Shown here piece by piece: positions 564 to 58,402 of a stretch of 64,000 nucleotides of DNA. Every line of letters starts with the position of its first letter. Within the stretch, counting starts at the first letter, position 1. The notes under the pieces are model-generated. The model ran no database searches. It worked only from the letters and a program-made list of their open reading frames with translations, and had not been told where the DNA came from. Location of the stretch: positions 2,436 through 66,435 of the forward strand of contig JAUWZD010000002.1 of assembly GCA_030615505.1 (NCBI GenBank). Reading direction: 5' to 3'. Position numbers and translations under genes: made by a program. Source of the DNA: Spirochaetales bacterium (GTDB lineage: Bacteria > Spirochaetota > Spirochaetia > SZUA-6 > DRHE01).

Positions 564-1352
564 ATGGGGAATCACCATATGGGAGTACTCGGTATTCTTA
601 CCTGCGAAATATTGGAACTCGAATTTGCCCATCTGCTTGTTACAGATAACGAACTGTCCCGGATTACAATTCTGGAAGATATCCGATCCTTCCGCTTGAT
701 CGAGGCGCTGGAATCAAAAAAGGTCAAGAAATTAAGACGAATCCCTCATATTAATAGTTTTTCTCCTGATCATTCAGAGCAGCCGGAGGTGCTTGTACGC
801 GTATTGGAACTGGCGCTTCACCGAACAAGGAAAAGATTGCAGGAAGGATTGGTCAATGCGGCCCGCGAGATGAGTCACCATGTGGATGCATTGCTTCTCG
901 GGTATGGTTTGTGCGGTAACGCACTTGAAAACCCGGGCGAGCTGCTTGATGTTGACCTGCCCGTCTTTATCCCCATGGACAGGGATCATCCTGTGGATGA
1001 CTGTGTCGGTCTGCTCCTCGGGGGACGGGACTGTTACTATGCGGAACAATGCAAAACCCCCGGAACATTTTTTATGATACCGGGATGGACGTACCATTGG
1101 AAGACAATATTCGGCCGAGACTGCAGCGATATGGATCCGGACATGGCAAAGCTCCTGTTGGCCAATTACGAGCGATCTCTTCTGGTTTTAACGCCTGTGG
1201 TGTCCAAAGATGAAATGAAAAAAAATGTGGAAGAATTCAACAAACTGTTTGGCTTACGGAGCGAAGCGCGTGAAGGAACGATGGAAATTTTAAATGAAAC
1301 CTGGAAAGACGCCAAAGCGTTTCTGAAGACTAAAATGGGGAATAGATTATGA
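564..1352 (+). CDS. Hypothetical protein, tentatively DUF1638-like.
   Basis: 262-aa ORF. The N-terminal [14 protein letters not shown] motif resembles DUF1638 (tentative, from memory). Its 3' end overlaps the start of the next gene by 4 nt. Confidence 0.4.
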
Positions 1353-4300
1353 AAATATCGAAACAGGGCCTGGCATCGCTGCAATGTATTCATGAGGGCG
1401 CCAATTCCCTCATTTACCGTCAGGACACAAGCGAGTACGGGAAACCAGTCATTATTAAACTCCTGAAACACGACTATCCTACATCTGAGCAGATTGTTCT
1501 GTTCAGCAATGAGTACGAATTAACGAAAGACCTCAGCATCCCGGGAATTCGCAAAGCATACGACACAGGCAGGATTGATGGCACACCTGCCCTCGTGTTG
1601 GACTATGTTGAAGGTGAGACCATCCGGGAAGCATTTGTTAAGCAGCGCAAGGGCCTGGCAGAGATGCTCACGGTAACAATCTCAATCGCGCAGGCATTGG
1701 GGGAAATCCATTACCACAACATCATTCACAAAGACATCAATAGCCGTAACATTCTGGTCAATCTCGAACAGCAGACAGCCACTATTATTGATTTCGGCAT
1801 GGCGTCGCAGGTCGATCTCAAGACCCGCTATATAGGGGATTTTGAAGTGTTGGGAGGGACTCTTCACTATATGTCGCCCGAGCAGACCGGCAGAATGAAT
1901 CGGTTTATCGATTATCGCACCGACCTCTATTCTCTGGGCGTTGTACTGTACGAGATGCTCACAGGGAAATTACCGTTTGACACAACTGATGTGTCGGAGC
2001 TCGTCCATTGCCACATTGCCAGACGTCCGACCCCGCTGTGCGAGATCAACTCCGACATCCCCCAGGCGATCTCGGACATTGCGATGAAACTGCTGGCAAA
2101 GAATGCTGAAGACCGCTATCAGTCTGCGTATGGCTTAAAGGCAGATTTAGAGAACTGCCTGAATCAATTAAGAAAAACAGGCACGATCGAAGGCTTTGAA
2201 TTAGCAAAAGAGGATTTTTCAGGGAGATTTCAGATTCCTCAGAAACTGTATGGCAGAGAACAGGAAATTCAAACCCTGATACAGGCATTTGAATGGGTGA
2301 ATAGAGGCACAAGTGAAATTCTTTTGGTATCGGGCTATCCAGGTGTGGGGAAATCTTCAATAGTCATGGAAATTCAAAAAATTGTCACGGAAAAGCAGGG
2401 ATGTTTCATCTCGGGGAAGCACGATCAATATCAGCAGAATACCCCCTATTATGGCTTGATTCAGGCGTTTACCGATCTTGTCAACATGATGCTGACGGAA
2501 AGTGACGAGCGATTTGCCCAATGGAAAGCAAAGATCGTGAAGGCGGTCGGGGAAAACGGACAGTTGTTGATTGAGGTGATTCCAAGTTTAGAATTGATTA
2601 TCGGCAGGCAGCCGCCTGTTCAGGAACTGGACCCCACAAAGGCACAACATCGCTTTCATTATGTGTTTCAAAACTTTGTTAAAGCCATTTCTCAAAAAGA
2701 ACATCCGCTGGTGTTATTTATCGATAATTTACAGTGGGCGGATGTTGCCTCTTTAGATTTCTTGAAATTGTTGATGAGCGGCGTAGAAAATCAGTATTTA
2801 TTGTTCATAGGCGCATATCGGGATAATGAGGTCGGGAAATCCCATCCGTTAATGATGACGGTCGAAGATATGAAAAAGAAAAAGGCTATTATCAACACGA
2901 TTCATTTGGCAAATCTTTCTCATGACACACTGAACCTTTTGATCTCGGACACTTTACAATGCGAACCGTCTTATGCGCAATCATTATCGGAACTGGTATA
3001 TGAAAAAACAGGTGGGAATACATTTTTTGCTATTGAATTTTTGAAATCGTTATATGAGGAAGGCTTGCTGACCTTTCATTTTGATATGCATAGATGGAAA
3101 TGGGATATTACTCAAATTCGGGAAAAGAATATTCCAGACGATGTGGCCGTGTTAATGATCCATAAAATCGAAAAATTACCTGAGGACACTCGAAAAATAC
3201 TGACACTGGCCGCATGTATAGGGCACAGGTTTGATCTGAAAATGCTGGCCGCCATTGCGGAACAATCGCTAAAAGATACATTTGACAATCTATGGAAGGC
3301 CGTTGAAGAGGGATTGGTACTGCCTTTGGATGATAATTATAAAATAATGGCGGCGCTTCCGAATGGACAACAATCGGGAGTAAAAAGCCATTTCGAATTT
3401 TTGCATAACAGAACCCGACAAACCTTCTATGCGCTGATTCGCAAAAAACAGAGAAAAACGATTTCTCTTACGATTGGGAGATTATGCTTACAGGATACGG
3501 AAGAGACTGATTTGGAAGAAAACATATTTGATATTGTGAATCAGTTCAATGAGGGGTTTCAATACATCAAAGATGAACAGGAGAAACTCAAGTTAGCAGA
3601 ATTAAATCTCATAGCCGGACGCAAAGCGAAGAACGCAACGGCATATAAGACGGCTATCTGGTATTTAAGTATGGGGATAGGACTGCTGCCGCCAAGAGAT
3701 AAATGGGAGGCTCAATATGACCTGGCGCTCAGCCTGTATATGGAAGCCGTGGAAGCCGAATACTTAATGACTACCTTTGAACGGGCGGAACTACTCTCCA
3801 AAGAAGTTCTCCAACATGCCAGAGGTCTCCTGGAGAAAATCAAAATTTATGATCTCCAGATCTTGTTTTACACAGCCCAAAACAAAAATGACAAAGCCAT
3901 AGAGTCTGCGCTGGAAGCCCTGGAGATGCTGGACGTCTCTCTGCCCACCGAACCGGAGGAGATAAATGTTTATGCTGAAAAGTTGCAGGAAGAATTGTCT
4001 GAAAAAGTCGACCGGATCGATGATTTAGCCGACTTGCCGGTAATGAAGGAGCCGTATCAATTGGCAGCGATGCGGATCTTGATGAATATGGCTGCTCCGG
4101 CTCATCAGGCGAATCCCGGATTGTTGCCGGCGATTATCTTCAAAATGGTTCTCATGTCCGTCAAATATGGGAATTCGCCCCTGGCAGCTTTTGCCTATGG
4201 TTGGTATGCCGCATTTTTATGCGGAGCATACGGTGACATCGAGAAGGGGCATCAGTTTGGACAACTGTCGGTGAAAGTGCTGGAGCAGTTTAACGCCACA

Positions 4301-7300
4301 GAACTCAAAGCTAAAGTTATCTTTCTGTTTAACGTTTCTGTAAGACACTGGAAAGAACATGCCGGCGAAACGATAAAACCTTTGCAGAAAGTACATCAAA
4401 GTGGGGTTGAAACAGGAGATTTGGAGTATGGGTATTATGGGGCTGCCCACTATTGCGGCTATTTGTTTTGTATCGGAGAATCCCTGGAACTTATTCGTCA
4501 GAAGCAGGCGGAATATCTGGAGACAACAAAAAGGTTTCGACTGGAGTTTCATAGTTATTTCATCAAGATATGGGCACAAATGGTTTTGAATCTCCTGGGC
4601 AGGTCCGCGGACCCGTGCCGGTTGACAGGGGAACTGCTTGATGAATCGGAAATGCTGCCGGTTTGGATAGAGCAAAACAATCTTACCCTGGTTTTTTGCG
4701 CTTCTTGCTGCCGGACAATCTTGCTGTACTTGTTTAAAAACTATGCTGAGGCGATCGAATCGGCCCGTTTGGGGGAAGAATACGAAAAAGGCGGAGAAGG
4801 ATTTATTTATCTTCCTGAGCACAAGTTTTACTATGCCCTGGCGCTTTTGGCTCACTATCCCGAGGTCGAACCCGGGACGAAGAAACAATATCTGGATATA
4901 GTGGCCTCGATTCAAGAAAAAATGAAACAATGGGCATGCCATGCCCCCATGAATTTTCAGCATAAATACGACCTGATCGAGGCAGAGAGAGGCCGGATAT
5001 CAGGTGAAACCCTCAAAGCAATGGAACATTACGGCCGGGCTATAAAAGGCGCCCGGGAACATGAATATATTCAGGAAGAGGCACTGGCGTATGAACGCGA
5101 AGCAGAGTTTTATCTTGCTTTGGGCAGAGAGGAATTTGCCCAGCTCTGCATAACCAAAGCCCTGGATGGCTACCGACTTTGGGGCGCAACACGCAAAGTT
5201 GACGATTTGGAAGCACAGTACAGGCATCTAATGCTGACAACTCTCACCCCGACCATGACTATACCAGAAAGTAAAGGAATGAGTTCCACTTCCACATCCG
5301 GAGTATCCGCTTCATTAGATACGGCAGCCATTATAAAAGCATCCCACATGCTCTCCCAGGAAATCCATTTGGAACGACTGCTTGACAAAATGATACACAT
5401 CGTCATTGAAAGTGCAGGCGCGGAAAAAGGCATTTTGATTGAGAACAGGAACTACAGGCTGATAATACAGGCAAAAGGCAAAGTCGGGCAGGAACAGGTC
5501 GAAACGATGCAGGAAATCCCCATCGAACAGAGCGGAGAAATTCCCCTCTCAGTTGTAAATTACGTAGCACGAACGCAAACGCCTGTCGTTTTGAATGATG
5601 CCTGTCATGACAACTCCTACGCCGCCGACAGATACATCCTAATCCATCAACCCAAATCGCTGCTGTGTCTGCCGATTGTCCATCAGGGAAAACTCTCAGC
5701 GCTGTTGTATTTGGAGAACAATCTGACAACAGACGCCTTTACTCCGGATCGTTTGGAATTATTGAGGACACTGTCCTCACAGGCAGCAATTTCAATAGTT
5801 AATGCCGACCTTTATGTCAGGTTGGAGGAAAAAATCAGGGCGCACAGGAAGGCTGAAAAGGAGTTAAAAAAGCACCGGGATCGCCTTGAAGAACTGGTGA
5901 AAGCGCGTACAAGAAATCTTGAAGCTGCCAACAAAGAACTCAATAAGGCCAAAGAAGAGGCCGAAACCGCCACCCAGGCAAAGAGCGAATTCCTGGCCAG
6001 CATGAGCCATGAGCTGCGTACCCCTCTCAATGCCATTATCGGCTTTTCGGAAATCCTCGGGGAAAAAACTTTTGGCGAACTGAATGAGAAACAGGCAAAA
6101 TACGTCAACCATGTCCTCACAAGCGGCCGCCACCTGCTCCAACTGATCAGCGACATCCTGGATCTTTCCAAGGTGGAAGCGGGCAAGATGGAACTTGAAC
6201 CATCCAGGGTGAACATAAAGGGTCTTCTTGAAAACAGTCTCGTCATGATCAAGGAAAAGGCTATGAAGCATAGCCTCAGGCTCGACCTGCACATCTCTGA
6301 GGAGCTAATGGATCTCGAGATATCGGTAGATGAGCGTAAACTCAAGCAGATTATGTTCAACCTGCTTTCCAATGCTGCCAAGTTCACCCCTGACGGCGGA
6401 GAAATCCACATCACTGCCCAATCAACAATCAACAATCATCAATCATCAATCCAGATCAGCGTAGCCGATACCGGCATCGGCATCAAACCCGAAGATCAGG
6501 AACGAATCTTTGGCGAGTTCGAGCAGGCGGACTCAACCTATGCCCGCGAGCAGGAAGGGACCGGCCTGGGCCTGGCGCTGACCCGCAAACTGGTCGAGCT
6601 GCACGGCGGTGGCATTTGGGTGGAAAGTAAAGGCGAGGGCAAAGGCAGCACCTTCACCTTTGTGATTCCTATTGAGGCTTTGGAGCGGGAGGGCGAGGTC
6701 TCCATCGAGCCGGAAGAACCTTTACCTTCCCGACCAGACGTGGACGATTCCCGGCCCCTGGTCCTGGTGGTGGAAGACGACCGCCAGGCGAGTGAGCTGA
6801 TCAGTCTTTATCTATCCGAAGCAGGCTATAGGGTGGCCCACGCCTTTGATGGGGAGCAGGCGATTAAAATAGCGCGGGAACTGAGACCTTATGCGATCAC
6901 CCTGGACATTATTCTGCCGAAGAAAGACGGCTGGGAGGTGCTGGCAGAGCTGAAATCCCTGCCTGAGGTGAAAGATATCCCTGTAGTCATCGTGTCAACA
7001 GTAGAAAAGCGACCGTTTGGCCTCAATTTGGGGGCCGTTGAATACTTTGTTAAGCCAGTGAACAAGGAGCAGTTAATCGAGGCCGTGCGCAAGATCGGGG
7101 CCGTGACTGTGGTTGTGGTTGACGACGAGCCCCAGACCGTTGAACTGTTGACCGACATGCTCCAGGCCGAGGGATTCACTGTGCTTCAGGCATATGGTGG
7201 TCAACAGGGCGTAGATCTTGCCATTGAGAAGCACCCCGACCTCATTATTGTTGACCTGATGATGCCTGAGGTGAGCGGGTTCGACGTGGTGGAGCAATTG

Positions 7301-7486
7301 CGGGCGCACCCTGAAGTTATGGAGATTCCGATCATGATTTACACCTCCAAAGATCTCACCGCAGAGGATCGACAACGGCTCAACAGTCACGTACAGGCGA
7401 TCGCCTCCAAGTCGGCTTCGGGCAAGAAGGACTTACTTCGGGCGCTTGAGAGGCTGGGAAAGAGGAAGGGCGGAAAATCAAATTGA
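1349..7486 (+). CDS. Giant multidomain signalling protein: Ser/Thr protein kinase, P-loop NTPase (AAA/NB-ARC-like) with a helical repeat region, GAF, coiled coil, HisKA, HATPase_c and two REC domains.
   Basis: Kinase motifs [16 protein letters not shown] and HYMSPEQ. Walker A motif [12 protein letters not shown]-like block around aa 1300–1460. H-box [18 protein letters not shown]. HATPase N/G boxes ([24 protein letters not shown]). Two receiver domains with [11 protein letters not shown] and [11 protein letters not shown]. Confidence 0.85.
6419..6453 (+). repeat. Heptanucleotide tandem repeat, in frame inside the HATPase domain: CAATCAA x2, CAATCAT x2, CAATCCA.
   Basis: Read directly from the sequence. 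It encodes the [11 protein letters not shown] linker between the N and G1 boxes. Confidence 0.6.
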
Positions 7487-11639: not shown

Positions 11640-12211
11640 ATGAATAATAAATCCGGGAAAAGAGAATTTAATCGTTTTCCAATTGGACTAGGGGACGTCC
11701 ATTTGTAATTAAATAACTGTAAGACGAGAGTAAGGGATTGGGGCGTAATGTTAAAAATAGAGGTCGGTGATCTACAATTTTGTCGGATGGGGTCAGATCC
11801 GCTGTATAGAAAATGATCCAGACATACCTGAGGCAGTATTGATGATTGTCGATTGAAAAACAAAGAAGGTTTTTGTTTTAAGGAAATATGGTACTTTGTG
11901 GGATGGTTTTAAACAGACTATGGAAAACGCCTATAAATATCTCTTCGGTGCAAGAAGCGGATCAGTTCGAATGTGTCACCTGACAACTTGAGGCCGAGCC
12001 GATAATCTCCGATCCTTAAGCGGTAGTAGCTGGGAAAACCTGCAATCTTTTTGACTCCTTTTAGTCCTGCCGGGGAGTCTAACCTTTTCGATCCGGCAAG
12101 GGAAATAAGCCGATCCCCAGCCGTAAAAAACCGGGGATCGGCTCGCGCTGCAATACTTAAAAGAGCTTGTACACGGCGTCGTTGGACATGTCGAAAAGCC
12201 CGGTATCATCT

Positions 12212-12909
12212 TCATAGGCCTTCGAACGGCTGTCTGGAGAAACAACGATCGTGGGTTGGAACCCCTCCATGACCTTCGATCAGTCTATCGACAAGTTGTT
12301 CCTCCCCGCCCCAGCCGCGGATAACTTTTTCGGGCGGCGCCACATCTCTCTGGGTGTTGTATGGCCTATTCTCCAGGCCCCAGCGAAGGTACATCTCAGA
12401 TCCGAGAATCGACAGCGCCCGGGTAGCCTCCACCACCAGGACCTGGGACAGGGCACCCCCTTTGAGAACCCGGGCGGGGTAGATATCTCCCACCTTTCTC
12501 TGAGGATACAAGTCCAACCCTGATTCTCCGTCGGTAAACAGAAGAGTGACAATTCAAAAGGGGTCCATCCTGATGACGCTCCTGCATACCCCAGCCAGTC
12601 CGTCTATCCCCGTGCGAAAATCTACCGCTTCCACCGCCAGCAGAATCCGCATCTGCGGCGTGATCTGTATCAACGCCTTCGATCCAACAACGGCGGTAAA
12701 GCCTCAACCCGCTGCTTCAACCTCGTGTAGTCCAGGACCAGTGTCTGCGCAATATCGCTGATGGAGTGCCGCTCCGACAACTCGGCCGCCGCCTGCCACA
12801 AGCGCTGCGGTATTCGCGAACCCCTTTTTCTGACGCTGCACCAGCTTTGGAACTCCTTCAACACTTCCGCCGGTGTCCGCCGTCCGTCCGGCAAATTCTC
12901 CTGTTTCAT
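12212..12909 (-). other. GC-rich (~60%) degenerate foreign fragment with short ORFs, including one transposase-like HTH. Unassigned mobile-element remnant.
   Basis: Local GC is clearly higher than the flanks. The ORF 12670..12909 (RRTPAEVLKEF...ISDIAQTL) looks like a transposase N-terminal HTH. A perfect 11-bp inverted repeat lies at 12108–12143. No intact gene. Confidence 0.25.
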
Positions 12910-13112
12910 CAGCCATCCTCCTCGTGATCTTTGGATAGCCTATGCTACACCCTCCGGCTGCGATTTCCACGCACGCTCACCGAAAGGACACGATGAATTG
13001 ACCTTGGCATCACGGTATTCCAAAAGCAGAATGACACCTCCCGCCGTAATAAGTATATGTGGGCTCAAAAGCTCAAATAAACCAAACGCTTACAGAACCT
13101 CTATCTTCCTAA

Positions 13113-13783
13113 TATACCCATATACCAAGAGGGCAAAATGTCCTGCAAACGGTATTCAAAGAACATTTTGATGATTTCAGAGAAGTGTATGATGAGAAAT
13201 ATTCAAAAGCATACGGCAAATATCGTATTGATAGAATTAAAGAAGTTGTAGAAGAATTCATAAAATTCGGAGACTATAAAGAAGGTCTTGCTAGAATAAA
13301 ATCCACAGGATGAAACCATGTACCAACCCTGACTGCGGTCATCCACAGGATGCCCGCTGGGTGCCCGCAGGGTGAAACCAAAACCATGATTATTTTGTTC
13401 CCCTATCCTGCAAGGGATTCTATCTATGTCCGTCTTGTCATCAGAAAAGAACCCTCTTGTTTGCAGAACAGATCACACAAGAAGCTCTCTTAAGGCTTCC
13501 GCACAGACAGTGGGTTTTTTGTATTCCCAAGTGCCTTCGAGTGTTTTTCAAGCATGACAGAATGCTGTTCTCCGATATATCCAGGTTGATCTTTCAGATG
13601 CTCCAATCCTACTATGATAAGGTTTTAGCTAATTCTATCCAAACCGGCGGCACCCTGGACGGATCATCCGGATGGGCACATGACATCGAGCAACCCCGCA
13701 CGTACTACGAGAACTCATGCGTTTACTTGAAGTCCTTGTGTCGGGCAGTTCCCTGTGTAAAGCTCATTCAAATGATTGTTTGA
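13113..13783 (+). pseudogene. IS91-family (rolling-circle, HUH Y2) transposase N-terminal fragment. It has no start codon, is interrupted by two repeat-element insertions, and is truncated after the zinc-binding/N-terminal domain.
   Basis: Translation gives FKEHFDDFREVYDEKYSKAYGKYRIDRIKEVVEEFIKFGDYKEGLARIK, then [insert] CTNPDCGH [insert] DYFVPLSCKGFYLCPSCHQKRTLLFAEQITQEALLRLPHRQWVFCIPKCLRVFF. This matches the conserved IS91-family N-terminus (GF-RvrC-CG-SCK-CPSC...HRHWVFTlP). Confidence 0.7.
13302..13386 (+). repeat. Repeat-element copy A. A 17-bp short form (13302–13318) and a 45-bp long form (13342–13386) flank 23 bp of transposase coding sequence.
   Basis: TCCACAGGATGAAACCA, and TCCACAGGATG CCCGCTGGGTG CCCGCAGGGTG AAACCAAAACCA. 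Deleting both restores the transposase reading frame. Confidence 0.7.
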
Positions 13784-13945: not shown

Positions 13946-15213
13946 ATGAGGAAGGTTCCACAGGAGAAATGGCATACGCTTTTGAAAGATCATCACGAGG
14001 GCTATATCTCATGGGAGCAGTTTGAAATAAACCGAAAACGCATCGGGTCGAACGGGCGGCCAGGAAAGGGCCCAGGAGCACCACGGGAGGGGGATGGACT
14101 TCTGCAAGGGATCATTCTCTGCGGACGCTGTGGAAGAAGGATGAGAATCGCTTACGGAAAAGGCTCCAGGCCGACCCATTATAGCTGCGCACAAGCGCGC
14201 AAGCAAACAGGTGCTCCGGTGTGTCAGAGTTTTGGAGCACGCCGGCTGGAGCAAGCAGTGGAAGGACTCTTGTTGGATTGCCTGTCACCGCTGGGCGTAG
14301 AGGCTATGCTGGAAGCGGCGAAGGTGTATACCGAGGATAACGAGGTGGAACGGACCCGATGGAAACAAAACATCGAGAGAGCACACTACGAGATGAATCT
14401 CGCTCGCCGGCAGTATGATGCGGTGGATCCAGAGAATCGGCTTGCCGGAAGGTCCCGACCTTGGGGTTGCTCGGGAGCTGGAAAGACGGTATGAAAAGGC
14501 ACTTAGAGCCATAGAAGAGATTGAGTCGGAAGCGTATTGCCCGATGTCTGATCGAGAACGTAGTGGTAACCTCACCGCGAGAAGGCACAATGCTTATAGC
14601 CCAGGTGCACTGGAAAGGCGGCGAGGTTACAAAGCTCGATGTACTCAAGGGCAAGAGTGGCATTCACCGTTATGTGTCGCCTCTTGAACTCGTTGAGTTA
14701 ATACGTACGCTGGCAACTGAGTTTTCAGACATCCAGATCGCACGCATTTTGCACCGCAAGAGACTGAAGACACCAAAGGGTCGGCCTTTCATGGCTTACC
14801 ATGTAGCCAACGTGCGAAATAAATATAACATTCCTAAGGGTCTACGGGTGCCACTACGAGGGGAAGACGTCTATACGGCAGAAAAAGCAGCAGAACTGTT
14901 GGGTGCCTGTCGAAGTACAATTATCCGGTGGTTAGAAGTTGGCTTGCTACGCGGTTCACAATTGACATCTGGAGCTCCGTGGCGTATCGTAGTAACCAAA
15001 GAGGACATCGAAAGGCTAAAACCGAATGAGGTTGGTGAAGGTAGGTATCCGCTTAAGGGAGCGGCTTCGGCCTTAGGGGTGAGCCAGCAGACCGTTTTGC
15101 AAAAGGTTAAGTCGGGAGAGCTTGAAGCCATTCGAGTGCGAACAGGCAGGCGTGTAGGCTGGAGAATTCGTTTACCCATAAGCATTTACGACAATCAACC
15201 AGCCTTGTTTTAA
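13946..15213 (+). pseudogene. Large serine recombinase, C-terminal two-thirds, split over three frames by frameshifts. The catalytic resolvase domain is absent.
   Basis: Recombinase domain and zinc beta-ribbon (LLQGIILCGRCGRRMRIAY...YSC). A coiled coil in frame 0 (ELERRYEKALRAIEEIE). A C-terminal segment in frame 1 with two excisionase-type HTH motifs. Frames 2, 0 and 1 meet at about 14415–14687. Confidence 0.65.
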
Positions 15214-19743: not shown

Positions 19744-21054
19744 ATGAGAGCTGTGGATCTTATAATGAAGAAGAGAGACGGGAAGGAGCTGTCCAGGCAA
19801 GAGATCGATTTCCTTATTCAGGGTTATGTGAGAGAAGAGATACCTGATTACCAGGTTTCGAGTTTTGCCATGGCCGTTTTTTTTAATGGTATGAGCTTTA
19901 AAGAAACCGGCTATTTAACCCGGGCCATGATTGATTCAGGGGATGTGATAGACCTTTCAAAATTAAATGGAGCTCTGGTGGATAAGCATTCTACCGGTGG
20001 GGTGGGTGATAAGGTCTCTCTGATTCTGGCGCCTTTAGCCGCTGCCTGCGGGCTTATGGTTCCAATGATGAGCGGTAGAGCTTTGGGCCATACCGGGGGT
20101 ACCCTGGATAAGCTCGAATCCATTCCGGGCTACCGGACGGACCTTTCCGTAGATTCTTTCATCATGGGCCTTGAGAAGGTAGGTTTCGCTATGACCGGTC
20201 AGAGCGAGAAGGTGGTGCCGGCAGACCGGAAGATGTATGTACTAAGGGATGTTACAGCTACGGTGGAATCCATTCCCCTTATCACTGCCAGCATTATGTC
20301 TAAGAAGTTTGCCGAGGGGGCGGAGGCTTTTGTTTTCGATGTGAAATGCGGAACCGGAGCTTTTATGAAGAGCATTGAGGATGCTGAAACCCTGGCAGTC
20401 TCTTTGGTCAATACGGGAAAGAGCCTGGACAGGCGCATCAGCGCAGTAATCAGTGATATGAACCAGCCCCTGGGACTCACAGTCGGCAATTTTTTAGAGG
20501 TACGCGAGGCGATTGAATGTCTTAACGGCAGGGGACCGAAAGATCTGATGGATCTCACCCTCCGCTTAACCGGCCACATGCTGCTTTTAAGCGGAATTGC
20601 CTGTAATATTGGATCTGCTGAAGAATTGTGCCGCGTGAAGATAGAAGACGGCTCTGCATGGCAGAAGTTTCTGGATAATGTGGAACTTCAGGGCGGAGAT
20701 CCTGAAATTGTCCTGAATCCGGAAAAAGGACCCAAAGCCGGCCGTGTGGTTTCGCTGTCAGCGCGGGAAGAGGGCTATGTGGAGCGGGTCGATGCATATC
20801 TGGTAGGCCTGGCCGCGGGGCTGCTGGGCTCAAGCCGGGCCAGGAAGGAAGACCCTGTACTGCCGGAGGTAGGGGTAGAGCTTGTAAAAATACAGGGAGA
20901 TTCAGTTAAATTCGGGGATGAGCTTTGCCTTATTCACGGCAGGGATCCCGATAAGATACGGGAAGCTGAAAAGCTTCTAAACAAGGCCTATAAGCTGTCT
21001 GATGAGAAGATATTGCCCTCAAAACGGGTTATGAAAGAAATTGTAAATCAATGA
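19744..21054 (+). CDS. Pyrimidine-nucleoside (thymidine) phosphorylase family protein.
   Basis: DKHSTGGVGDK motif and glycosyltransferase family 3 organisation. Confidence 0.85.
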   Translation: MRAVDLIMKKRDGKELSRQEIDFLIQGYVREEIPDYQVSSFAMAVFFNGMSFKETGYLTRAMIDSGDVIDLSKLNGALVDKHSTGGVGDKVSLILAPLAAACGLMVPMMSGRALGHTGGTLDKLESIPGYRTDLSVDSFIMGLEKVGFAMTGQSEKVVPADRKMYVLRDVTATVESIPLITASIMSKKFAEGAEAFVFDVKCGTGAFMKSIEDAETLAVSLVNTGKSLDRRISAVISDMNQPLGLTVGNFLEVREAIECLNGRGPKDLMDLTLRLTGHMLLLSGIACNIGSAEELCRVKIEDGSAWQKFLDNVELQGGDPEIVLNPEKGPKAGRVVSLSAREEGYVERVDAYLVGLAAGLLGSSRARKEDPVLPEVGVELVKIQGDSVKFGDELCLIHGRDPDKIREAEKLLNKAYKLSDEKILPSKRVMKEIVNQ

Positions 21055-23171
21055 TATGGGAAAAAATTGAAACAGACCCCGATGAAGTAAGGGAGATCGC
21101 CAGACAGAACGATCTTGACCTGATCTCCTCATCCATACTGATTAGAAGGAATTTAACGGACAGCCGTTCCCTACGTTTCCTGCTCGAGGATGATCTGCTT
21201 CTCCTTCACAATCCCTTTTTGTTCCGGGATATGGAGAAGGCGGTAAACCGTGTAAACCGCGCCATAGATCGGAAAGAGAAGATTATGGTTTTCGGCGACA
21301 GGGATGTAGACGGCATTACATCAACCGTTTTACTGGTCCAGCTCATAAGGGATTTAAGCGGCAGGGTTGAGTGGAAGCTTCCCGGGGAGAATGAAGACTA
21401 TGGGCTCACTCGCCAGGTAATTGAGGATTCGTCTGCCTCTGCCTGCAGCCTGATAATTACAGTAGATTGTGGAATCTCAAATATCGATGAAATAGCCTTA
21501 GCCAGGGAAAGAGGAATAGATACAGTGGTCATAGATCATCATATTCCACAGGATACGCTTCCTGAGGCCGCGGCAATAATAAATCCGAAACAGGCGGGAA
21601 GTACCTACCCGTTCAGAGATCTTGCAGGATGCGCTGTGGCTGCGAAATTTGCCTGGGCTGTGGTTTTCTCAAGCACGCCAATGTACGGCAAACCTGTGTG
21701 GCTTTTAAATATTAAACCGGACAACGAAACCTATTCTGTAGAAGCTGTAAAACTTGTGAACCTGGTGGAAAGAGAGCGCCTGGTTTTAAGTCTGCTTCCC
21801 GAACTTTCAAGCTCGCAGAAAAAACGGCTTTTACCCCTGATGTCGGCAGATGATATTGTAGTTTATGACTCAGCCGGCATGAGGAAACTTATAGACAGAA
21901 TAGGATTAGGTGCTGAGAACCTGAAGCTTACGGATATTCGTCCAATGGTAGGAAAATTCTTTCCGGATTTAGAGGGTAAGAGCCTGCTTAAAATCAAGAG
22001 CCTGATAAGGCCGGCCCAATATGGAAGCCGGGGCTCCGGTGAGCTTGATATGCTGATCAGCCTCCATAATACTGTTATACTGAAACAGGAAAATGCTCTC
22101 CTATCAAAGCAGAATTATTTTATGGATCTGGCGGCCTTAGGTACCCTGGCCGATTTGATGCCCTTAGCTGATGAGAATAGAATCATCGTGAAGAGGGGAT
22201 TGGAAGTTTTAAATCAGATGGGACGCCACGGCCTGCGCGAACTCATTATAAAACAGAGGCTTTACGGAAAGAGAATTACTACCACGGATGTTACCTGGCA
22301 GATTACACCGGTGCTTAATGCCGCCGGAAGGATGGGTGAGCCGGAAAAAGCAGCCTCTCTACTGCTCTCAAATGATCCACATGAGGTTGAAGAACTGGTG
22401 GATTATATTCTCGATCTGAATAGAAAACGAAAATATCTGGGAGATAATGTCTGGAAAAGATGTTTTACCCGGTTCAAAGAGAGCCTCGATAAGGCTGATG
22501 GGAAGTTTATCCTGGTCTATGATCATTCAATTCCAAGAGGAATAACCGGGATCCTGGCCTCCAGATTAATTAATTATTTCAAAGTTCCGGCCATAGCCAT
22601 TGCCGTAAGCCATGATAAAGCTGTCGGTTCTCTTCGCAGTCCGTACTCGCTAGAAGGATTTCTAGATCATTATGCCGATCTTTTTCTAAATTACGGCGGT
22701 CATGATTGCGCGGCAGGTTTCAGCCTGGCCAGTTCCATTATTCCCGAATTTGAATCGAGATTTTACAGGATGATAAGGGAACTTAATCCTCCCGATCATA
22801 GTGGAGAAAAATTGATCATCGATGCTGAGGTGCCTCCCGACTACCTCAATCCAAATTTAATCAGTGTTGTAGAGCTTTTTGAGCCTTACGGAGAAGGCAG
22901 CCCTGTCCTAATTTTCTTGACCCGGCAAGTTAGGATTGAAGCACTGGATATCATCGGTAAAAGCGGTATGTCCCACCTGAAGCTGCTTATCGGAGCCGGG
23001 AAATACAGATGGCCGGCAATTTACTGGAACGCGGCGGAAAGAGCCGGAAAGGATTTTACGGTTCACGACACTGTAGATATCGCATACCGACTGGCAAGAA
23101 ACTATTTTCAGAATACAGAAACCCTTCAGCTTACTATTTTAGATCTGAAACCATCCACAGGATGCCCATAG
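21051..23171 (+). CDS. recJ: Single-stranded-DNA-specific exonuclease RecJ. Its last 6 codons are supplied by repeat element B.
   Basis: DHH motifs (FGDRDVDGITS, VVIDHH) and DHHA1 (GGHDCAAGF). Confidence 0.9.
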   Translation: MIWEKIETDPDEVREIARQNDLDLISSSILIRRNLTDSRSLRFLLEDDLLLLHNPFLFRDMEKAVNRVNRAIDRKEKIMVFGDRDVDGITSTVLLVQLIRDLSGRVEWKLPGENEDYGLTRQVIEDSSASACSLIITVDCGISNIDEIALARERGIDTVVIDHHIPQDTLPEAAAIINPKQAGSTYPFRDLAGCAVAAKFAWAVVFSSTPMYGKPVWLLNIKPDNETYSVEAVKLVNLVERERLVLSLLPELSSSQKKRLLPLMSADDIVVYDSAGMRKLIDRIGLGAENLKLTDIRPMVGKFFPDLEGKSLLKIKSLIRPAQYGSRGSGELDMLISLHNTVILKQENALLSKQNYFMDLAALGTLADLMPLADENRIIVKRGLEVLNQMGRHGLRELIIKQRLYGKRITTTDVTWQITPVLNAAGRMGEPEKAASLLLSNDPHEVEELVDYILDLNRKRKYLGDNVWKRCFTRFKESLDKADGKFILVYDHSIPRGITGILASRLINYFKVPAIAIAVSHDKAVGSLRSPYSLEGFLDHYADLFLNYGGHDCAAGFSLASSIIPEFESRFYRMIRELNPPDHSGEKLIIDAEVPPDYLNPNLISVVELFEPYGEGSPVLIFLTRQVRIEALDIIGKSGMSHLKLLIGAGKYRWPAIYWNAAERAGKDFTVHDTVDIAYRLARNYFQNTETLQLTILDLKPSTGCP

Positions 23172-23221
23172 GGTGCCCACAGGGTGAAACCAAAACCAAA
23201 ACCATCCACAGGATGAAACCA
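23154..23221 (+). repeat. Repeat-element copy B: a 51-bp long form plus a 17-bp short form in tandem, inserted between recJ and the M23 peptidase gene.
   Basis: TCCACAGGATG CCCATAGGGTG CCCACAGGGTG AAACCAAAACCAAAACCA, then TCCACAGGATGAAACCA, then TG. Confidence 0.75.
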
Positions 23222-24300
23222 TGAGATCATCCCTGATTCTTCTACTGCTGTATCTTTCCTTCCATCTTCCGGCAGAGATCCTCTGCCTCAGTCCGGAAGA
23301 GGATTCATACTGTTACGTTTCACCGGAAGCGGATTACCTTTGGGCTGAAGGAAAACTGATGCCCAGGCAGGGGTTGTTCTCCTATTTTTCGGGGCAAGGT
23401 TCACACTTGCTTCCTGAAGTTATTTATTCTGAAGAATTTGACCGGGGGAATATACTCTGCGGATTTATTATTATCGATTGTGTTATTGAACATTTTTCCG
23501 TAGAGCTTGAGGATCAGGATGGAAATCCTATAGCAGAAGCTGGAGGATTTAAAATAGGTAATAGACAGGGATTTGAAGTTTGGTGCTTTCTATTGGGTAT
23601 CCCGAGTGATCTGACAGGGGGAATTTACAGGCTTACAATAATGGGAGGGCAGGGGAATCGTCATTTCCGTTACCTGGGAGCAGTAAAGGTAGGAGCTAAA
23701 CAGTACGCTTTTGAGCGGATTTTACTGGATAAGGGTCTTGAGGATCTGGTGTCAAAACCTGATGTGCGAAAAGTGAAAGAGGCCAGAAATTTAAGGGAAC
23801 TTCTTTTATCCTTTCGTTCTGATGCCTTCTATCATACCGGATCCTTTATACTGCCGGTTTCAGGAGCCAGGATAAGCTCCAATTTTGCTGCCAGGCGTAA
23901 ATATCAGTTTATGGGAGGAGGATTCTCTTCTGTTCATAATGGAATTGATCTGGCAGCGCCGCAGGGAACACCGGTTATGGCCTGCGGCTCCGGTAAGGTT
24001 GTTTTTGCAGGCTACAGGATCATGAGCGGTAATACCGTGGTGCTTGAACATCTACCCGGAGTATATACCCTGTACTTTCATCTACTGGATCTGAAGGTCA
24101 GGGACGGCGATATGGTGAAAAGCGGCGGGATCTTAGGAAGTATCGGCATGACCGGCCTGGCAACAGGACCCCATCTCCACTGGGAGTTGCGAGTTTCCGG
24201 TGTTGCAGTGGACCCCGGAGCCGTCCTTCAGTCCGGCCTTATTGACAAAACTGCCGTTTCAGGTATCATTAAAGAGATTATTTTAGAAGGAAGGAGGTGA
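23221..24300 (+). CDS. M23 family metallopeptidase (LytM domain), secreted.
   Basis: N-terminal signal peptide. [14 protein letters not shown] (HxxxD) and HLHWE (HxH) motifs. Confidence 0.85.
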
Positions 24301-26810: not shown

Positions 26811-26880
26811 AGAAGCCTCCTTATTAAATATAAATAATATATTAGATCATAATAGAATTGAGGTCATTGTCAAGTCAATC

Positions 26881-26940
26881 TACAGGGTGCCCACAGGATG
26901 CCCGCAGGGTGCCCACAGGGTGAAACCAAAACCAAAACCA
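26881..26940 (+). repeat. Repeat-element copy C (60 bp) in the divergent intergenic region upstream of modA.
   Basis: TACAGGGTG CCCACAGGATG CCCGCAGGGTG CCCACAGGGTG AAACCAAAACCAAAACCA, then TGG. Confidence 0.75.
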
Positions 26941-33074: not shown

Positions 33075-33087
33075 TCCACAGGATGAA
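33075..33087 (+). repeat. Partial (13-nt) copy of the repeat-element 5' end (TCCACAGGATGAA) upstream of the MOSC gene.
   Basis: Exact 13-mer shared with copies A and B. Confidence 0.4.
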
Positions 33088-33107
33088 GACACATAAATTT
33101 TAGTCAA

Positions 33108-34087: not shown

Positions 34088-34160
34088 CGCAGGGTAGAGC
34101 AGTTGGAAGCTCGTCGGGCTCATAACCCGGAGGTCGCAGGTTCGAGTCCTGCCCCTGCTA
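34088..34160 (+). tRNA. tRNA-Met (anticodon CAT) with initiator-type features.
   Basis: The cloverleaf folds by hand: acceptor CGCAGGG/CCCTGCT with an unpaired C1·U72, D-arm GAGC/GCTC, anticodon stem with three G:C pairs next to the loop CTCATAA, and T-arm GCAGG-TTCGAGT-CCTGC. It is close to E. coli tRNA-fMet. No CCA is encoded. Confidence 0.85.
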
Positions 34161-34255: not shown

Positions 34256-35431
34256 GTGCCTCGATATAAGGAGCCGTTTTCTCTCTATCCCAGAAAAACA
34301 AAAAAGGGCGTTGCCGTCTGGTATTATCGAACTTACGATAAGGATGGCGAGCGTACTTATGGCCGATCTACCGGCGAATCTTCAAAGACTCTTGCCCGAC
34401 AATATTGTCAGTCTCTGATTTCCAAAGGCAGATTGATTCCTCAGAAATCACCTACGCTCGCAGAGTGGACAGAGAAAAGGCGATGGTGGATATGGGGAGA
34501 GTGTCTGTATATCAAGGGTCGGCTTGCTCGCTCAGATGTGGATAGACCGGGAATTACTCATCGTTATTGCGATTTGAATTATCAAGTTATGATGAAGAAA
34601 ATTCTATCGATTCATGGAGACAAGCAGCTTGACTCTATTATGCCCGAGGATTGTGAAAAACTATTATTCTCTTGGGCAAATCAGGGAGTCAGTTATAAGA
34701 CTGCAAATAATTGGGCTTCAGTATATCGGGTTATGATGGGCGAGGCAGCCAGATTAAGGATGATAGACGAAAATCCCTGGAAGCGAGTGCTTTCATTATC
34801 TTCCAGCACAAAGAGGCGGGGGATTCTCACGATGGCCGAAGCCCGAACGCTTCTGAATCCGGCGACAATAAACGAAGTGTGGGACAAACACCATATGTAT
34901 TATTGCATCAACCTGATTGCATCTCTCACAGCGATGAGACAGGGGGAGATCCTCGCACTGAGGAAAGAAGATGTGTTCTCCGATCATTTGCATATCAGGC
35001 ATTCATGGTCTGCAAAATATGAGTTGGGGAAAACTAAGACAAAAGAAATTGGCGATGCGCCGATCCCCGGATTTCTGTATCGAGAAATTGAAAAGTATCT
35101 GGAATATGATGGTTATATTTTCAGCTTCAATGGGGGGAAGAGGCCAGCTACAGGGAACCGTGTAACCGAATGGCTATATCGTGCCATGAGAAATATCGGG
35201 ATTTCAGAGCATGAGAGGGTGGAGCGGAATTTAACCTTCCATAGTTGGCGTCATTTTTTCAATACGTATCTGCGGAGCCGGGGCGTGCCAGATTCGCAAA
35301 TAAGGAAAGTTACCCGGCATAAAACCGAAGAAATGACAGAGCATTATACAGAATTCGGATTGGAACATTATAAAGAAACATACGATGCTCAGGATGGATT
35401 CGGGGAATTGATACAGGAGGAAAAAGGATGA
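34256..35431 (+). CDS. Tyrosine-type phage integrase.
   Basis: C-terminal catalytic R...HSWRHFFNTYL...Y pattern and an N-terminal arm-binding region (KKGVAVWYYR). Confidence 0.85.
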   Translation: MPRYKEPFSLYPRKTKKGVAVWYYRTYDKDGERTYGRSTGESSKTLARQYCQSLISKGRLIPQKSPTLAEWTEKRRWWIWGECLYIKGRLARSDVDRPGITHRYCDLNYQVMMKKILSIHGDKQLDSIMPEDCEKLLFSWANQGVSYKTANNWASVYRVMMGEAARLRMIDENPWKRVLSLSSSTKRRGILTMAEARTLLNPATINEVWDKHHMYYCINLIASLTAMRQGEILALRKEDVFSDHLHIRHSWSAKYELGKTKTKEIGDAPIPGFLYREIEKYLEYDGYIFSFNGGKRPATGNRVTEWLYRAMRNIGISEHERVERNLTFHSWRHFFNTYLRSRGVPDSQIRKVTRHKTEEMTEHYTEFGLEHYKETYDAQDGFGELIQEEKG

Positions 35432-58368: not shown

Positions 58369-58402
58369 GGGGGGAATTTAGGGGGAATTTAGGGGGAATA
58401 TT
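58369..58402. repeat. Three direct repeats of GGGGGAATTTA (11-bp period) about 190 bp upstream of the late operon.
   Basis: Read directly: GGGGGGAATTTAGGGGGAATTTAGGGGGAATATTT. Confidence 0.5.

Follow-up and report, generated by a model that had tools for sequence, protein, structure and literature searches.

The 64,000-nucleotide stretch of Spirochaetales DNA analysed here (the window) carries the relic of an IS91-family element interrupted by two short inserts, and further repeats of the same kind at a recJ/M23 peptidase gene junction and in a divergent intergenic region (Table 1). The relic was compared with L001, a copy from another metagenome (ENA ERZ27251120) that encodes the uninterrupted protein P0001 and is 97–99% identical to the window copy. 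By BLASTN, homology to L001 was confined to 12998–13649; the left boundary is approximate, being the limit of the BLAST alignment, and the right end is missing, homology to intact copies ending at 13649. The protein reconstructed without the inserts matched Pfam PF14319 (Zn_Tnp_IS91; E=5.3e-13, 49 bits against a cutoff of 26.3, profile positions 8–89 of 90) and was 95% identical to P0001 over 150 aa, and the CxxC...C...CxxC cysteines were invariant in an alignment of 14 homologues. The Y2 HUH catalytic domain PF04986, present in several homologues of the reconstructed protein, is absent from the window copy, which ends before that domain. These results demonstrate that the window holds a fragment of an IS91-family member, not a whole element. 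The copy is dead also apart from the 17-bp insert, since it has an in-frame TAA, an out-of-phase 45-bp insert and a 3′ truncation.

Table 1 IS91-family relic and repeat copies in the window
Feature	Position	Strand	Remarks
IS91-family element, 5′ relic: leader and N-terminal ~190 transposase codons including the zinc-binding domain	12998..13649	+	3′-truncated
Extra 9 bases AATATACCC, a local duplication producing TAA in the transposase frame	13111..13119	+	L001 alignment columns 72–80, read in the P0001 frame
17-bp cassette TCCACAGGATGAAACCA at the codon boundary ...ARIK/CTNP...	13302..13318	+	absent from L001
Native IS91 23 bp TGTACCAACCCTGACTGCGGTCA (CTNPDCG-H) between the two inserts	13319..13341	+	identical in L001
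45-bp composite, 3 x 11-mer (TCCACAGGATG CCCGCTGGGTG CCCGCAGGGTG) + 2 x AAACCA; spans TCCACAGGATGCCCGCTGGGTGCCCGCAGGGTGAAACCAAAACCA	13342..13386	+	absent from L001 and L095
51-bp composite, 3 x 11-mer + 3 x AAACCA, between the last sense codon CCA of recJ and its TGA	23154..23204	+	
Second exact copy of the 17-bp cassette, adjoining the M23 peptidase start	23205..23221	+	
62-bp composite, 4 x 11-mer + 3 x AAACCA, located between divergent genes and upstream of the SBP_bac_11 gene (27004)	26879..26940	+	

The region 13291–13400 reads ...GCTAGAATAAAA/TCCACAGGATGAAACCA/TGTACCAACCCTGACTGCGGTCA/TCCACAGGATGCCCGCTGGGTGCCCGCAGGGTGAAACCAAAACCA/TGATTATTTT..., and excision of the 17-bp and 45-bp inserts yields ...GLARIKCTNPDCGHDYFVPLSCKGFYLCPSCHQKR.... 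A sequence-only reading had taken the two inserts for repeat elements that interrupt an IS91-type zinc-binding N-terminus between A and TG, without target duplication, and whose removal restores the frame. The base-for-base alignment with L001, which is 98.9% identical over the 265 bp 3′ of the inserts, agreed with this proposal: L001 lacked the two inserts to the base, neither site showed a target duplication, and the A/TG junctions were recovered, their placement being ambiguous by 1 bp (A) for the 17-mer and by 2 bp (CA) for the 45-mer. The Pfam match and the identity to P0001 bore out the identity of the interrupted gene. The joined protein aligned with IS91 N-termini, the comparison on which that reading had staked its in-frame empty site, and the 23-bp CTNPDCGH segment that it had assigned to the native gene was the same in the uninterrupted copy. 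The inserts total 62 bp, as that reading stated. The 17-mer taken alone is no simple frameshift and keeps the downstream frame in phase 0.

The 17-mer sits at a codon boundary and reads TCC ACA GGA TGA, a stop, overlapping ATG AAA CCA, a restart in the downstream frame. The upstream ORF (13185..13313, ...ARIKSTG) now ends ...IK-STG-TGA inside the cassette, and the overlapping ATG-AAA-CCA is in frame with the downstream CTNPDCGH; the same STG ending and MKP restart were read in the homologues P0070 and L063. With its overlapping stop and start (GGATGA or GGGTGA), the unit holds two frames in register with its two ends. To judge from the sequence, the phase-0 17-mer is a putative stop/restart (ATGA) cassette that would end the upstream ORF, with S-T-G-stop added, and would offer an M-K-P- restart. 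The 45-mer is placed after codon position 2 (GGT CA/T), and an in-frame TGA terminates the ORF; the GTGA and CCATGA overlaps within it would send any coupled re-initiation into the wrong frame. An exact look-up of the ...ARIKSTG ORF returned no record, and 13302–13386 is covered by one assembly.

The repeat family is modular, with 11-mers of the form YCCNNNGGRTG followed by AAACCA hexamers. Its basic unit is the 17-mer YCC-NNN-GGR-TGA-AAC-CA, to which longer members add 11-mers in front and AAACCA hexamers behind. The window contains five copies of 17–62 bp, each on the + strand; across the four insertion sites the arrays range from one to four 11-mers and from one to three hexamers. The motif TCCACAGGATG, with at most one mismatch, occurs 9 times in the window against 1.1 expected, CCCRCAGGGTG 7 times against 1.2, and AAACCAAAACCA 8 times against 0.4; the observed counts of all three motifs were reached in 0 of 100 shuffles.

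All four insertion sites in the window have A/TG junctions. Over seven independent sites, T follows the element in every case and TG in five, and the binomial probability of at least five TG in seven is ~2e-5 at p=1/16 per site by our own arithmetic. The 5′ flanks (AAAA, GTCA, ACCA, TCAA, CCAG, ACAG, TCTC and GTAA) are unconserved. The elements enter DNA seamlessly, without target duplication, directly 5′ of T (usually TG), and the terminal A of the element therefore makes or keeps an ATG. At the 62-bp composite, the TG that follows completes the ATG of a 15-codon upstream ORF. In all cases seen the element lies in the sense orientation of the gene that it touches (about 4 independent cases, P about 0.06), and three of four independent coding insertions are in phase 0 (P about 0.1); in total, the recovered members of the family number only about a dozen.

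At the recJ/M23 junction, recJ now ends with an added STGCP, at a TAG within the 51-bp element. The stretch 23205–23226 reads ...GGA TGA / ATG AAA CCA TGA / ATG AGA..., so that the last A of the 17-mer and the flanking TG rebuild the M23 ATG (23221–23223), with AGGA 7 nt upstream of it, and the mini-ORF ATG AAA CCA TGA overlaps the M23 start by 4 nt. The ORF at 23221..24300 was identified as Peptidase_M23 in Pfam. In the orthologous loci L100 and L101, recJ and M23 overlap by a 4-nt ATGA (CAATGA and CCATGA) with no insert, and RecJ homologues end LTILDLK[KRQ]x, 1–3 residues beyond LDLK. The predicted empty site of this junction is validated by both orthologous loci and by the RecJ homologue ends. 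The recJ-side copy is also present in the Logan assembly of SRR14872670, whose contig breaks inside the element. In addition, the native recJ end GAAACCA/TGA shares 7 nt with the 3′ end of the element and its flank, GAAACCA/TG.

The IS91 insertion is not unique to the window, as the identical codon boundary is filled in other IS91 lineages elsewhere. The identical 17-mer was found in the IS91 copies L095 (SDBV01), L063 (a Spirochaetales MAG) and L005 (a MAG binned as Planctomycetota). In L073 and L078 the same boundary holds a different member, a 37-mer ending CAGGGTGAAACCAAAACCA; L099 has a variant 17-mer there, TCCGCTGGATGAGACCA, with a SAG-stop and an MRP-restart retained. Over the other datasets, at least three diverged lineages of IS91 carry the same or a variant cassette at this boundary. 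The cassettes of the window and L063 agree at 17 of 17 bases, with flanks only 60% identical, and L099 and L063 have nearly identical 5′ flanks beside cassettes that differ at 4 of 17 positions; the identity of the cassette is incongruent with the IS91 tree. Every cassette-bearing IS91 copy seen is otherwise degenerate, and among these copies we found no evidence for a working split IS91. Outside IS91, the identical 17-mer splits a HAAS-domain gene in L054 (a Spirochaetaceae MAG), and deletion of the 17 bp restored a contiguous PF22564 match (profile positions 1–54 of 55, E=2.7e-14).

A genome-wide scan for the 17-mer gave 67 matches against about 69 expected by chance, most of them coding coincidences; in this collection, which lacks the source genome, only L005, L024, L054 and L063 were credible. 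A metagenome scan for the junction of 11-mer and hexamer gave 25 matches, of which only L073 and L078 were convincing, and the viral contigs and plasmids searched contained no family member. When the six element-encoded peptides were concatenated and searched against 5.8 billion proteins, eight word-sharing candidates were obtained and none scored, from which it follows that the long elements are rare in called ORFs. The repeat family belongs to an uncultured lineage of Spirochaetota and to some relatives.

Several other readings of the repeats were considered and rejected. A mini-hairpin with YCC-NNN-GGR stems is not favoured, since, as DNA, the 17-, 45-, 62- and 68-nt elements folded no more stably than shuffles (z-scores +0.7 to +1.2) and the 17-mer was structureless. 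A quasi-palindrome, with the 3′ flank as a mirror image of the element about CA/TG, gave 5–8 matches in 17, which is not significant given a mean of 5.7 (sd 1.7) in the null set of 17-mers starting with TG. MITEs were set aside, as the termini do not form an inverted repeat (TCCACAGG... versus ...GAAACCA) and none of the sites has a target duplication. No slippery heptamer common to the sites pointed to programmed frameshifting, and no matched take-off and landing codons pointed to translational bypass, the codons across the inserts being different (AAA/TGT, CAG/TGC, CTC/TAT). IS91/Helitron-type mobilisation shares only the TC start and the A/T target, and GTTC/CTTG is absent. A relation of orientation to replication was dropped as well, the window allowing no leading- or lagging-strand assignment; the switch in GC skew and coding strand at about 36 kb is caused by a prophage adjoining tRNA-Met. 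That tRNA (34088–34160) was the sole match of the whole window to Rfam 15 at gathering score, with none in the repeats. A Pfam scan of about 40 window ORFs revealed nothing suggestive of a mobilising enzyme; the recombination-type genes among them were a prophage integrase, a serine-recombinase fragment, and IS66 and IS91 fragments.

Taken together, the seamless empty sites, the modular architecture and the overlapping stop and start suggest that the inserts are probably members of a family of ultra-short (17–62 bp) modular dispersed repeats built on a stop/restart unit. In the transposase gene, the 17-mer would have split the coding sequence between an N-terminal segment and the zinc finger, and the 45-mer would have landed later, 23 bp downstream and out of phase, breaking the ORF of a copy that is now a truncated relic. 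At an ATGA overlap such as that of recJ and M23, a chain of coupling junctions would replace one, with the ATG restored and AGGA placed 7 nt upstream. [quoted passage not shown] A more far-reaching version holds that the 17-nt cassette is the smallest mobile DNA described, that it splits genes and operon junctions into coupled ORFs, that it homes to one IS91 codon boundary across several lineages, and that it rides on split active IS91 elements or tames them; on balance we consider this version unlikely. The mechanism of movement is unsupported, because no enzyme candidate was found among the ORFs scanned, the elements fold no better than shuffles and the 5′ target is not conserved. With low confidence, we suggest that the elements move as DNA, through the in-trans action of an enzyme encoded outside the window. 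It is suggested with equally low confidence that the IS91 boundary is a preferred target, or the sole position where a split IS91 stays mobile while carrying the cassette.

Two other origins deserve comparison with a dispersed repeat family. IS1 and IS3 use two ORFs, and the 17-nt cassette could similarly be a built-in regulatory feature of an IS91 subgroup that splits the transposase into OrfA and a translationally coupled OrfB, with the recJ/M23 and HAAS copies as secondary escapes. This would account for one codon boundary being filled in at least three IS91 lineages with flanks 60–85% identical, for the 17-nt length and GGATGA core that even the diverged L099 variant retains, and for phase 0 at all IS91 occurrences of the cassette. 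However, the 97–99% identical L001 does without it, nearly all of the 120 closest homologues are uninterrupted at ...ARI[KRQ]CTNP..., all cassette-bearing copies seen are otherwise broken, the identity of the cassette conflicts with the IS91 tree, and identical cassettes occur in unrelated host genes; we therefore think a built-in feature quite improbable. The inserts might instead be patches templated from another locus, for instance the recJ/M23 junction, by microhomology-mediated repair or gene conversion, with no dedicated transposition enzyme. The 7-nt identity at the native recJ end, the 1–2 bp of junction microhomology (A, CA) and the failure to find either a transposase candidate or a terminal structure are consistent with such patching. 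It is nevertheless distinctly unlikely in our view, as the same cassette at several unrelated sites in different genomes and metagenomes needs a recurrent, rather specific process, and as microhomology of 1–2 bp is insufficient for repeated insertion at a single IS91 boundary by different members.

Decay of a pseudogene, with the inserts as non-mobile products of local slippage or duplication, formed in situ within a dead gene, fits the multiply damaged state of the relic (the 9-bp duplication at 13111–13119 and the 3′ truncation), and tandem 11-mers and hexamers could grow by slippage. The empty site of L001 holds no seed of either repeat, though, and the identical 17-mer and the composite architecture recur at loci unrelated to this one, both within the window and in other metagenomes, so that this origin is effectively refuted and very improbable. 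Least credible of all, to a nearly negligible degree, is an assembly or sequencing artefact. The contig is metagenome-derived, assemblers can misplace short repeats, and the Logan contig does break inside the element; against this, separate projects and assemblers yielded the cassette (NCBI together with Logan SRR14872670; SDBV01; JAUVWI01; VRUG01; CAZERV01; and Logan SRR31660265), and the flanks differ per project and assembler, each reconstructing real genes.

Among known systems, the closest parallel to these repeats is with MIRUs. According to PMC12548453 and PMC3635867, MIRUs are intercistronic, gene-oriented repeats situated at the start codon, with a small internal ORF that has a 4-nt stop/start overlap. 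The spirochaete repeats share with them the short units, variable tandem arrays, dispersed loci and sense orientation, and an internal ORF that, as read from the DNA, overlaps its neighbours by 4 nt, an arrangement that would keep coupling. The MIRU-like location at a start codon or overlap is seen at recJ/M23 and possibly at 26879–26940, with its 15-codon upstream ORF, whereas the two IS91 sites and L054 are internal to genes. The unit here is 17 bp, the arrays are 17–62 bp, and the host belongs to Spirochaetota, not Actinomycetota; MIRUs are reportedly roughly 46–101 bp. We know of no MIRU description that includes landing inside coding sequence or recurrence at one IS91 codon boundary. The likeness proposed here is in how the repeats would work, not in membership of the MIRU family.

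The small dispersed repeats (SDRs) of heterocystous cyanobacteria are said to be about 20–30 nt long, with mobility inferred from filled and empty sites, and reportedly often lie inside other mobile elements and beside tandem short repeats and encode no protein. The family described here is likewise made of very small dispersed repeats that look mobile from filled and empty sites, are often found inside other mobile elements and beside tandem short repeats, and encode no protein, but it differs in sequence, host and architecture, and its 17-bp unit is smaller still; to our knowledge SDRs have not been described as stop/restart cassettes or tied to start codons. REP/REPIN-RAYT and IS200/IS605-derived elements are also short, non-coding and orientation-specific, with seamless empty sites lacking target duplication. 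They require a fixed tetranucleotide next to one end as well as stable hairpins, whereas the spirochaete repeats show neither folding better than shuffles nor a fixed 5′ tetra- or pentanucleotide target, and no Y1 HUH gene was found among the ORFs scanned. Rickettsia palindromic elements (RPEs) become an in-frame part of the translated protein, and mitochondrial 'byp' elements lie between matched codons and are bypassed by the ribosome. Both, like the present repeats, are selfish mini-elements tolerated in protein-coding genes through an interplay with translation; the unit here, in contrast, would stop translation and offer a restart, and matched take-off and landing codons are absent. Helitrons have TC as their first bases and integrate between A and T, and most copies here read A/TCC...CCA/T, again with no target duplication, as in IS91, ISCR and Helitrons. 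This likeness covers only 2–3 nt, and there is no 3′ hairpin, CTRR end or GTTC/CTTG target. The IS91 enzyme is linked to the repeats only by its gene being struck.

If the stop/restart reading is true, 17 bp would suffice for a dispersed, orientation-specific element that survives through its own stop/start junction, and the idea behind MIRUs would then cover another phylum, much smaller units and insertions within genes. It would also represent natural gene splitting by a minimal cassette, would offer a compact coupling module for synthetic operons, and would give a new ground for suspecting that short frameshifts dismissed as 'errors' in the gene calls of MAGs may be genuine. The repeated filling of one IS91 boundary is a concrete instance on which to test target-specific insertion against hitch-hiking between two selfish elements. 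Even if the stop/restart reading is wrong, the locus would still be a clean example of small repeats building up in a dead insertion sequence.

On the + strand, positions 13291-13400 read GCT AGA ATA AAA / TCCACAGGATGAAACCA / TGT ACC AAC CCT GAC TGC GGT CA, followed by a 45-mer composed of TCCACAGGATG CCCGCTGGGTG CCCGCAGGGTG AAACCA AAACCA and then by T GAT TAT TTT (slashes here and below mark junctions). Removal of 13302-13318 (17 bp) and 13342-13386 (45 bp) left a single ORF, EEFIKFGDYKEGLARIKCTNPDCGHDYFVPLSCKGFYLCPSCHQKRTLLFAEQ, which matched Zn_Tnp_IS91 (PF14319, E=5.3e-13, profile 8-89 of 90) and had 164 homologues. The top homologue, P0001, was 95% identical across all 150 residues and uninterrupted through GLARIKCTNPDCGHDYF. 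The contig encoding P0001 (L001, ENA ERZ27251120) aligned base for base with the window, with exactly both segments absent; BLASTN identity was 98.9% over 265 bp 3' of the second insert, and the 25 bp between the inserts (23 native bp with one base of flank on each side) matched at 100%. No target duplication was found at either site in this filled-versus-empty alignment, and the junction positions are fixed to within 1 bp (A) at the first insert and 2 bp (CA) at the second. The sequence-only reading had proposed that repeats were inserted in the N-terminus of an IS91-family transposase, between A and TG and with no duplicated target; both its observation and its interpretation are correct, and the A/TG junctions hold at all four insertion sites of the window. 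The two refuting conditions that it had set were checked and neither held, since L001 shares the native 23-bp segment and the reconstructed protein aligns with IS91 N-termini. The homology to L001 was confined to 12998-13649 (BLASTN), so the catalytic Y2 domain is absent from the window copy, in which nine additional bases at 13111-13119 also create an in-frame TAA. This copy is a relic, surrounded from 11.9 to 15.3 kb by a mobile-element graveyard (table). A RelE/ParE-like toxin remnant adjoins it.

The building blocks of the two inserts were strongly over-represented in the window: TCCACAGGATG (<=1 mismatch) occurred nine times against 1.1 expected, CCCRCAGGGTG seven times against 1.2, and AAACCAAAACCA eight times against 0.4, counts that were unmatched in shuffles. 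Five family members were located by a regular-expression scan. In each long member, the 11-mer block taken together with the first hexamer ends in 17 nt (CCCRCAGGGTGAAACCA) that are a variant of the short 17-mer, so the family is modular, a 17-nt unit YCC NNN GGR TGA AAC CA to which 11-mers are added 5' and hexamers 3', in tandem.

Repeat-family members and other features of the window (11-mer, YCCNNNGGRTG; hexamer, AAACCA)
Feature	Position	Strand	Description
Family member	13302-13318	+	1 x 11-mer, 1 x hexamer
Family member	13342-13386	+	3 x 11-mer, 2 x hexamer
Family member	23154-23204	+	3 x 11-mer, 3 x hexamer
Family member	23205-23221	+	1 x 11-mer, 1 x hexamer; identical to 13302-13318
Family member	26879-26940	+	4 x 11-mer, 3 x hexamer
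Possible degenerate 17-mer	33075-33091		TCCACAGGATGAAGACA (AAACCA -> AAGACA); moaC-MOSC intergenic, not at a start codon
recJ	21051-23171		ends ...LTILDLKP-STGCP-stop
IS66 Orf1/Orf2 fragments	12554-12909 and 11976-12245	minus	Orf2 cut after ~39 residues
Large serine recombinase, 5'-truncated, itself broken	within 11.9-15.3 kb		Zn_ribbon_recom, HTH_17
22-bp palindromic insert CCGGAAGGTCCCGACCTTGGGG	14445-14466		interrupts the serine recombinase in ...DPENRL/VARELERRYE...; single copy in window; mini-insert family distinct from the 17-mer family
2045-aa ORF	1349-7486		Ser/Thr protein kinase, AAA_16 ATPase, GAF, HisKA/HATPase_c and two receiver domains joined
Heptamer repeat CAATCAA x4.7	6419-6451		within the 2045-aa ORF
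tRNA-Met	34088-34160
Tyrosine integrase	34256-35431		follows the tRNA-Met
Mu-like/myovirus prophage	region 34088-64000	minus	baseplate J, Gp45/Gp48, GpP-like, DNA circularisation protein, capsid E, S49 protease, lambda-type portal
Perfect 11-bp tandem repeat GGGGGAATTTA x2.7	58370-58399		in prophage; sequence unrelated to the 17-mer family

Seamless filled and empty sites are validated at two loci, the second being the junction of recJ with an M23 peptidase gene. In two syntenic relatives these genes share a 4-base overlap (L100, ...CTG AAG CAATGA AAA...; L101, ...CAG CCATGA GG...), and the RecJ C-termini of 13 homologues end in LTILD[LI] plus two or three residues, mostly K plus one. In the window the junction CTG AAA CCA/TGA GAT is divided by the 51-mer and then the 17-mer, which lie between the last sense codon and TGA, that is, they part A from TG in the start codon of M23; with the final A of the 17-mer, this ATG (23221-23223) is rebuilt. 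The native recJ end GAAACCA/TGA (23147-23153) and the element 3' junction GAAACCA/TG (23215-23223) share a seven-nt identity, which could reflect target mimicry or an origin of the hexamer at such a site. The best named relatives of RecJ, Lon and their neighbours were Spirochaetales and Spirochaetaceae MAGs (closest RecJ 69% identical). The only records of the proteins of the RecJ/Lon region came from a single NCBI contig of 102 kb and from SRR14872670 as assembled in Logan. The Logan contig breaks off within the element on the recJ side, which is what a dispersed repeat would be expected to cause.

In phase 0 the 17-mer reads TCC ACA GGA TGA (Ser-Thr-Gly-stop), and ATG AAA CCA overlaps this stop as ATGA; the last codon of the restart frame coincides with the 3' end of the unit, so that this frame reads on into the codons downstream. 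In the long members GTGA takes the place of this ATGA. The predicted products at the IS91 boundary are ...ARIK-STG-stop and MKP-CTNPDCGH..., and the predicted chain at recJ/M23 is a GTG-KPKPKPSTG mini-ORF running to GGA TGA, then ATG AAA CCA TGA, then ATG AGA... (M23), with AGGA 7 nt upstream of the rebuilt ATG. The probability that a random 17-mer would carry ATGA in the one register fitting both ends is estimated at ~1-2%. We infer that stop/restart would make an insertion at an operon junction or codon boundary mild, and that copies there would persist for this reason. The 45-mer in IS91 gains nothing from the design. Placed after codon position 2, and with a length that is a multiple of three, it reads GHPQDARWVPAG-TGA in its phase, and its GTGA and CCATGA overlaps would direct any restart into the wrong frame (ORF 13350..13493), so the earlier claim that the gene is disrupted stands.

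The 17-mer was sought by exact match in 185,579 species genomes. The 67 hits are about as many as chance would give; on inspection, four of them were judged non-chance. L063, a contig of a Spirochaetales MAG, carries the 17-mer between GGTGTCGCCCGCATCCAG and TGCACCAACCCTGAATGT (...GVARIQ/CTNPEC...), the same codon boundary by homology, in another IS91 whose ORFs are ...ARIQSTG-stop and MKPCTNPEC...; L005, from a MAG binned as Planctomycetota, has it at the same boundary. In L054, from a Spirochaetaceae MAG, it lies within a gene adjoining a PadR regulator (...EKKEIL/YDYEEHF...; called ORFs ...EILSTG-stop and MKPYDYEEHF...), and its removal makes a HAAS domain contiguous again (PF22564, profile 1-54 of 55, E=2.7e-14); in L024, from the same MAG, it stands at a contig end. 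The IS91 boundary is also occupied in L095, found via P0070 (a protein starting MKPCTNPDCGH), by the 17-mer without the 45-mer; in L073 and L078, retrieved by a metagenome scan for CAGGGTGAAACCAAAACCA, by a 37-mer (GGTGTGTCTTCATC CCCRCAGGGTG AAACCA AAACCA); and in P0292/L099, found when 1.84 billion representative proteins were searched in full with HMMER, by a variant 17-mer, TCCGCTGGATGAGACCA (...ARIQ-SAG-stop and MRP-YTNPEC). This one boundary is recurrently occupied, in at least three lineages and in independent datasets.

Other small insertions seem to collect in the IS91 N-termini of these communities. L095 has a 21-bp in-frame insert, CCACTGGCGTGGATTTACAAT (HWRGFTI), in the zinc finger at ~670-690 (P0070 residues 19-25), where in P0109 a 7-residue stretch, VTSLKYA, replaces a single Ser. 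Nested GC-rich mini-inserts (CCGRAGGTGCCC..., GTCTTCRTCCCCGCAGGGG...) were present in L005 (1-160, minus), L073 (1480-1700) and L078 (1990-2150), one of those in L078 being apparently bracketed by a 9-bp direct repeat, AGGTCGTAG.

The boundary copies do not fit one ancient, neutral insertion event, because cassette identity, flanks and the closest relative disagree. The 17-mer is 17/17 identical among the window, L095, L063 and L005, whereas identity over the first 60 nt of 3' flank is 84% between window and L095, 60% between window and L063 and 84% between L063 and L005; L099 and L063 have nearly identical 5' flanks with cassettes differing at 4/17 positions; and L001, which is closest to the window copy and has a 100% identical flank over the same 60 nt, lacks the cassette. 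We favour repeated insertion, in which different family members struck the boundary through a target preference and tolerated positions were selected; the reason is that unrelated host genes carry identical cassettes too. Exchange or precise loss of cassettes, or very strong constraint on the cassette within IS91, are the remaining options.

Across seven independent sites (the IS91 boundary, IS91 site 2, recJ/M23, 26879, L054, L024 and the L063-type boundary, counted once), the 3' base was T in 7/7 and TG followed in 5/7 (binomial P(>=5 TG, p=1/16) ~2e-5), and the compared insertion sites had no 5'-flank consensus. Sense orientation at every site with a defined gene (P about 0.06) and phase 0 at 3/4 independent coding sites (P about 0.1) are few events and only suggestive, and the conclusions on the family as a whole rest on a small number of copies.

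Among movement models, the hairpin-dependent single-strand (IS200/REP-type) model failed two of three sequence tests and the MITE model both tests put to it; neither bypass nor frameshift models passed. No candidate mobilising enzyme was found among the ~40 ORFs of the window scanned. The nearest precedent in size is reportedly the small dispersed repeats of cyanobacteria, attributed to Elhai in 2008. As a functional analogue the mycobacterial MIRU comes closest: the family shares its logic, variable tandem arrays and an unexplained mobilisation route. MIRUs are mainly intergenic and within operons (PMC3635867). The 17-mer family belongs to another phylum, has another size, splits genes from inside and recurs at one IS91 transposase site. 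By analogy, we file it as working like MIRUs, outside the MIRU family.

The prophage contained no mini-repeat copies (34088-64000), and it is the cause of the change in strand and GC skew near 36 kb.

That a repeat has inserted into a dead IS is by itself ordinary. The interest lies in what kind of repeat it is, a unit of 17 nt that reads as having a built-in ATGA stop/restart, and in two validated filled/empty loci and the recurrence at one IS91 codon boundary.
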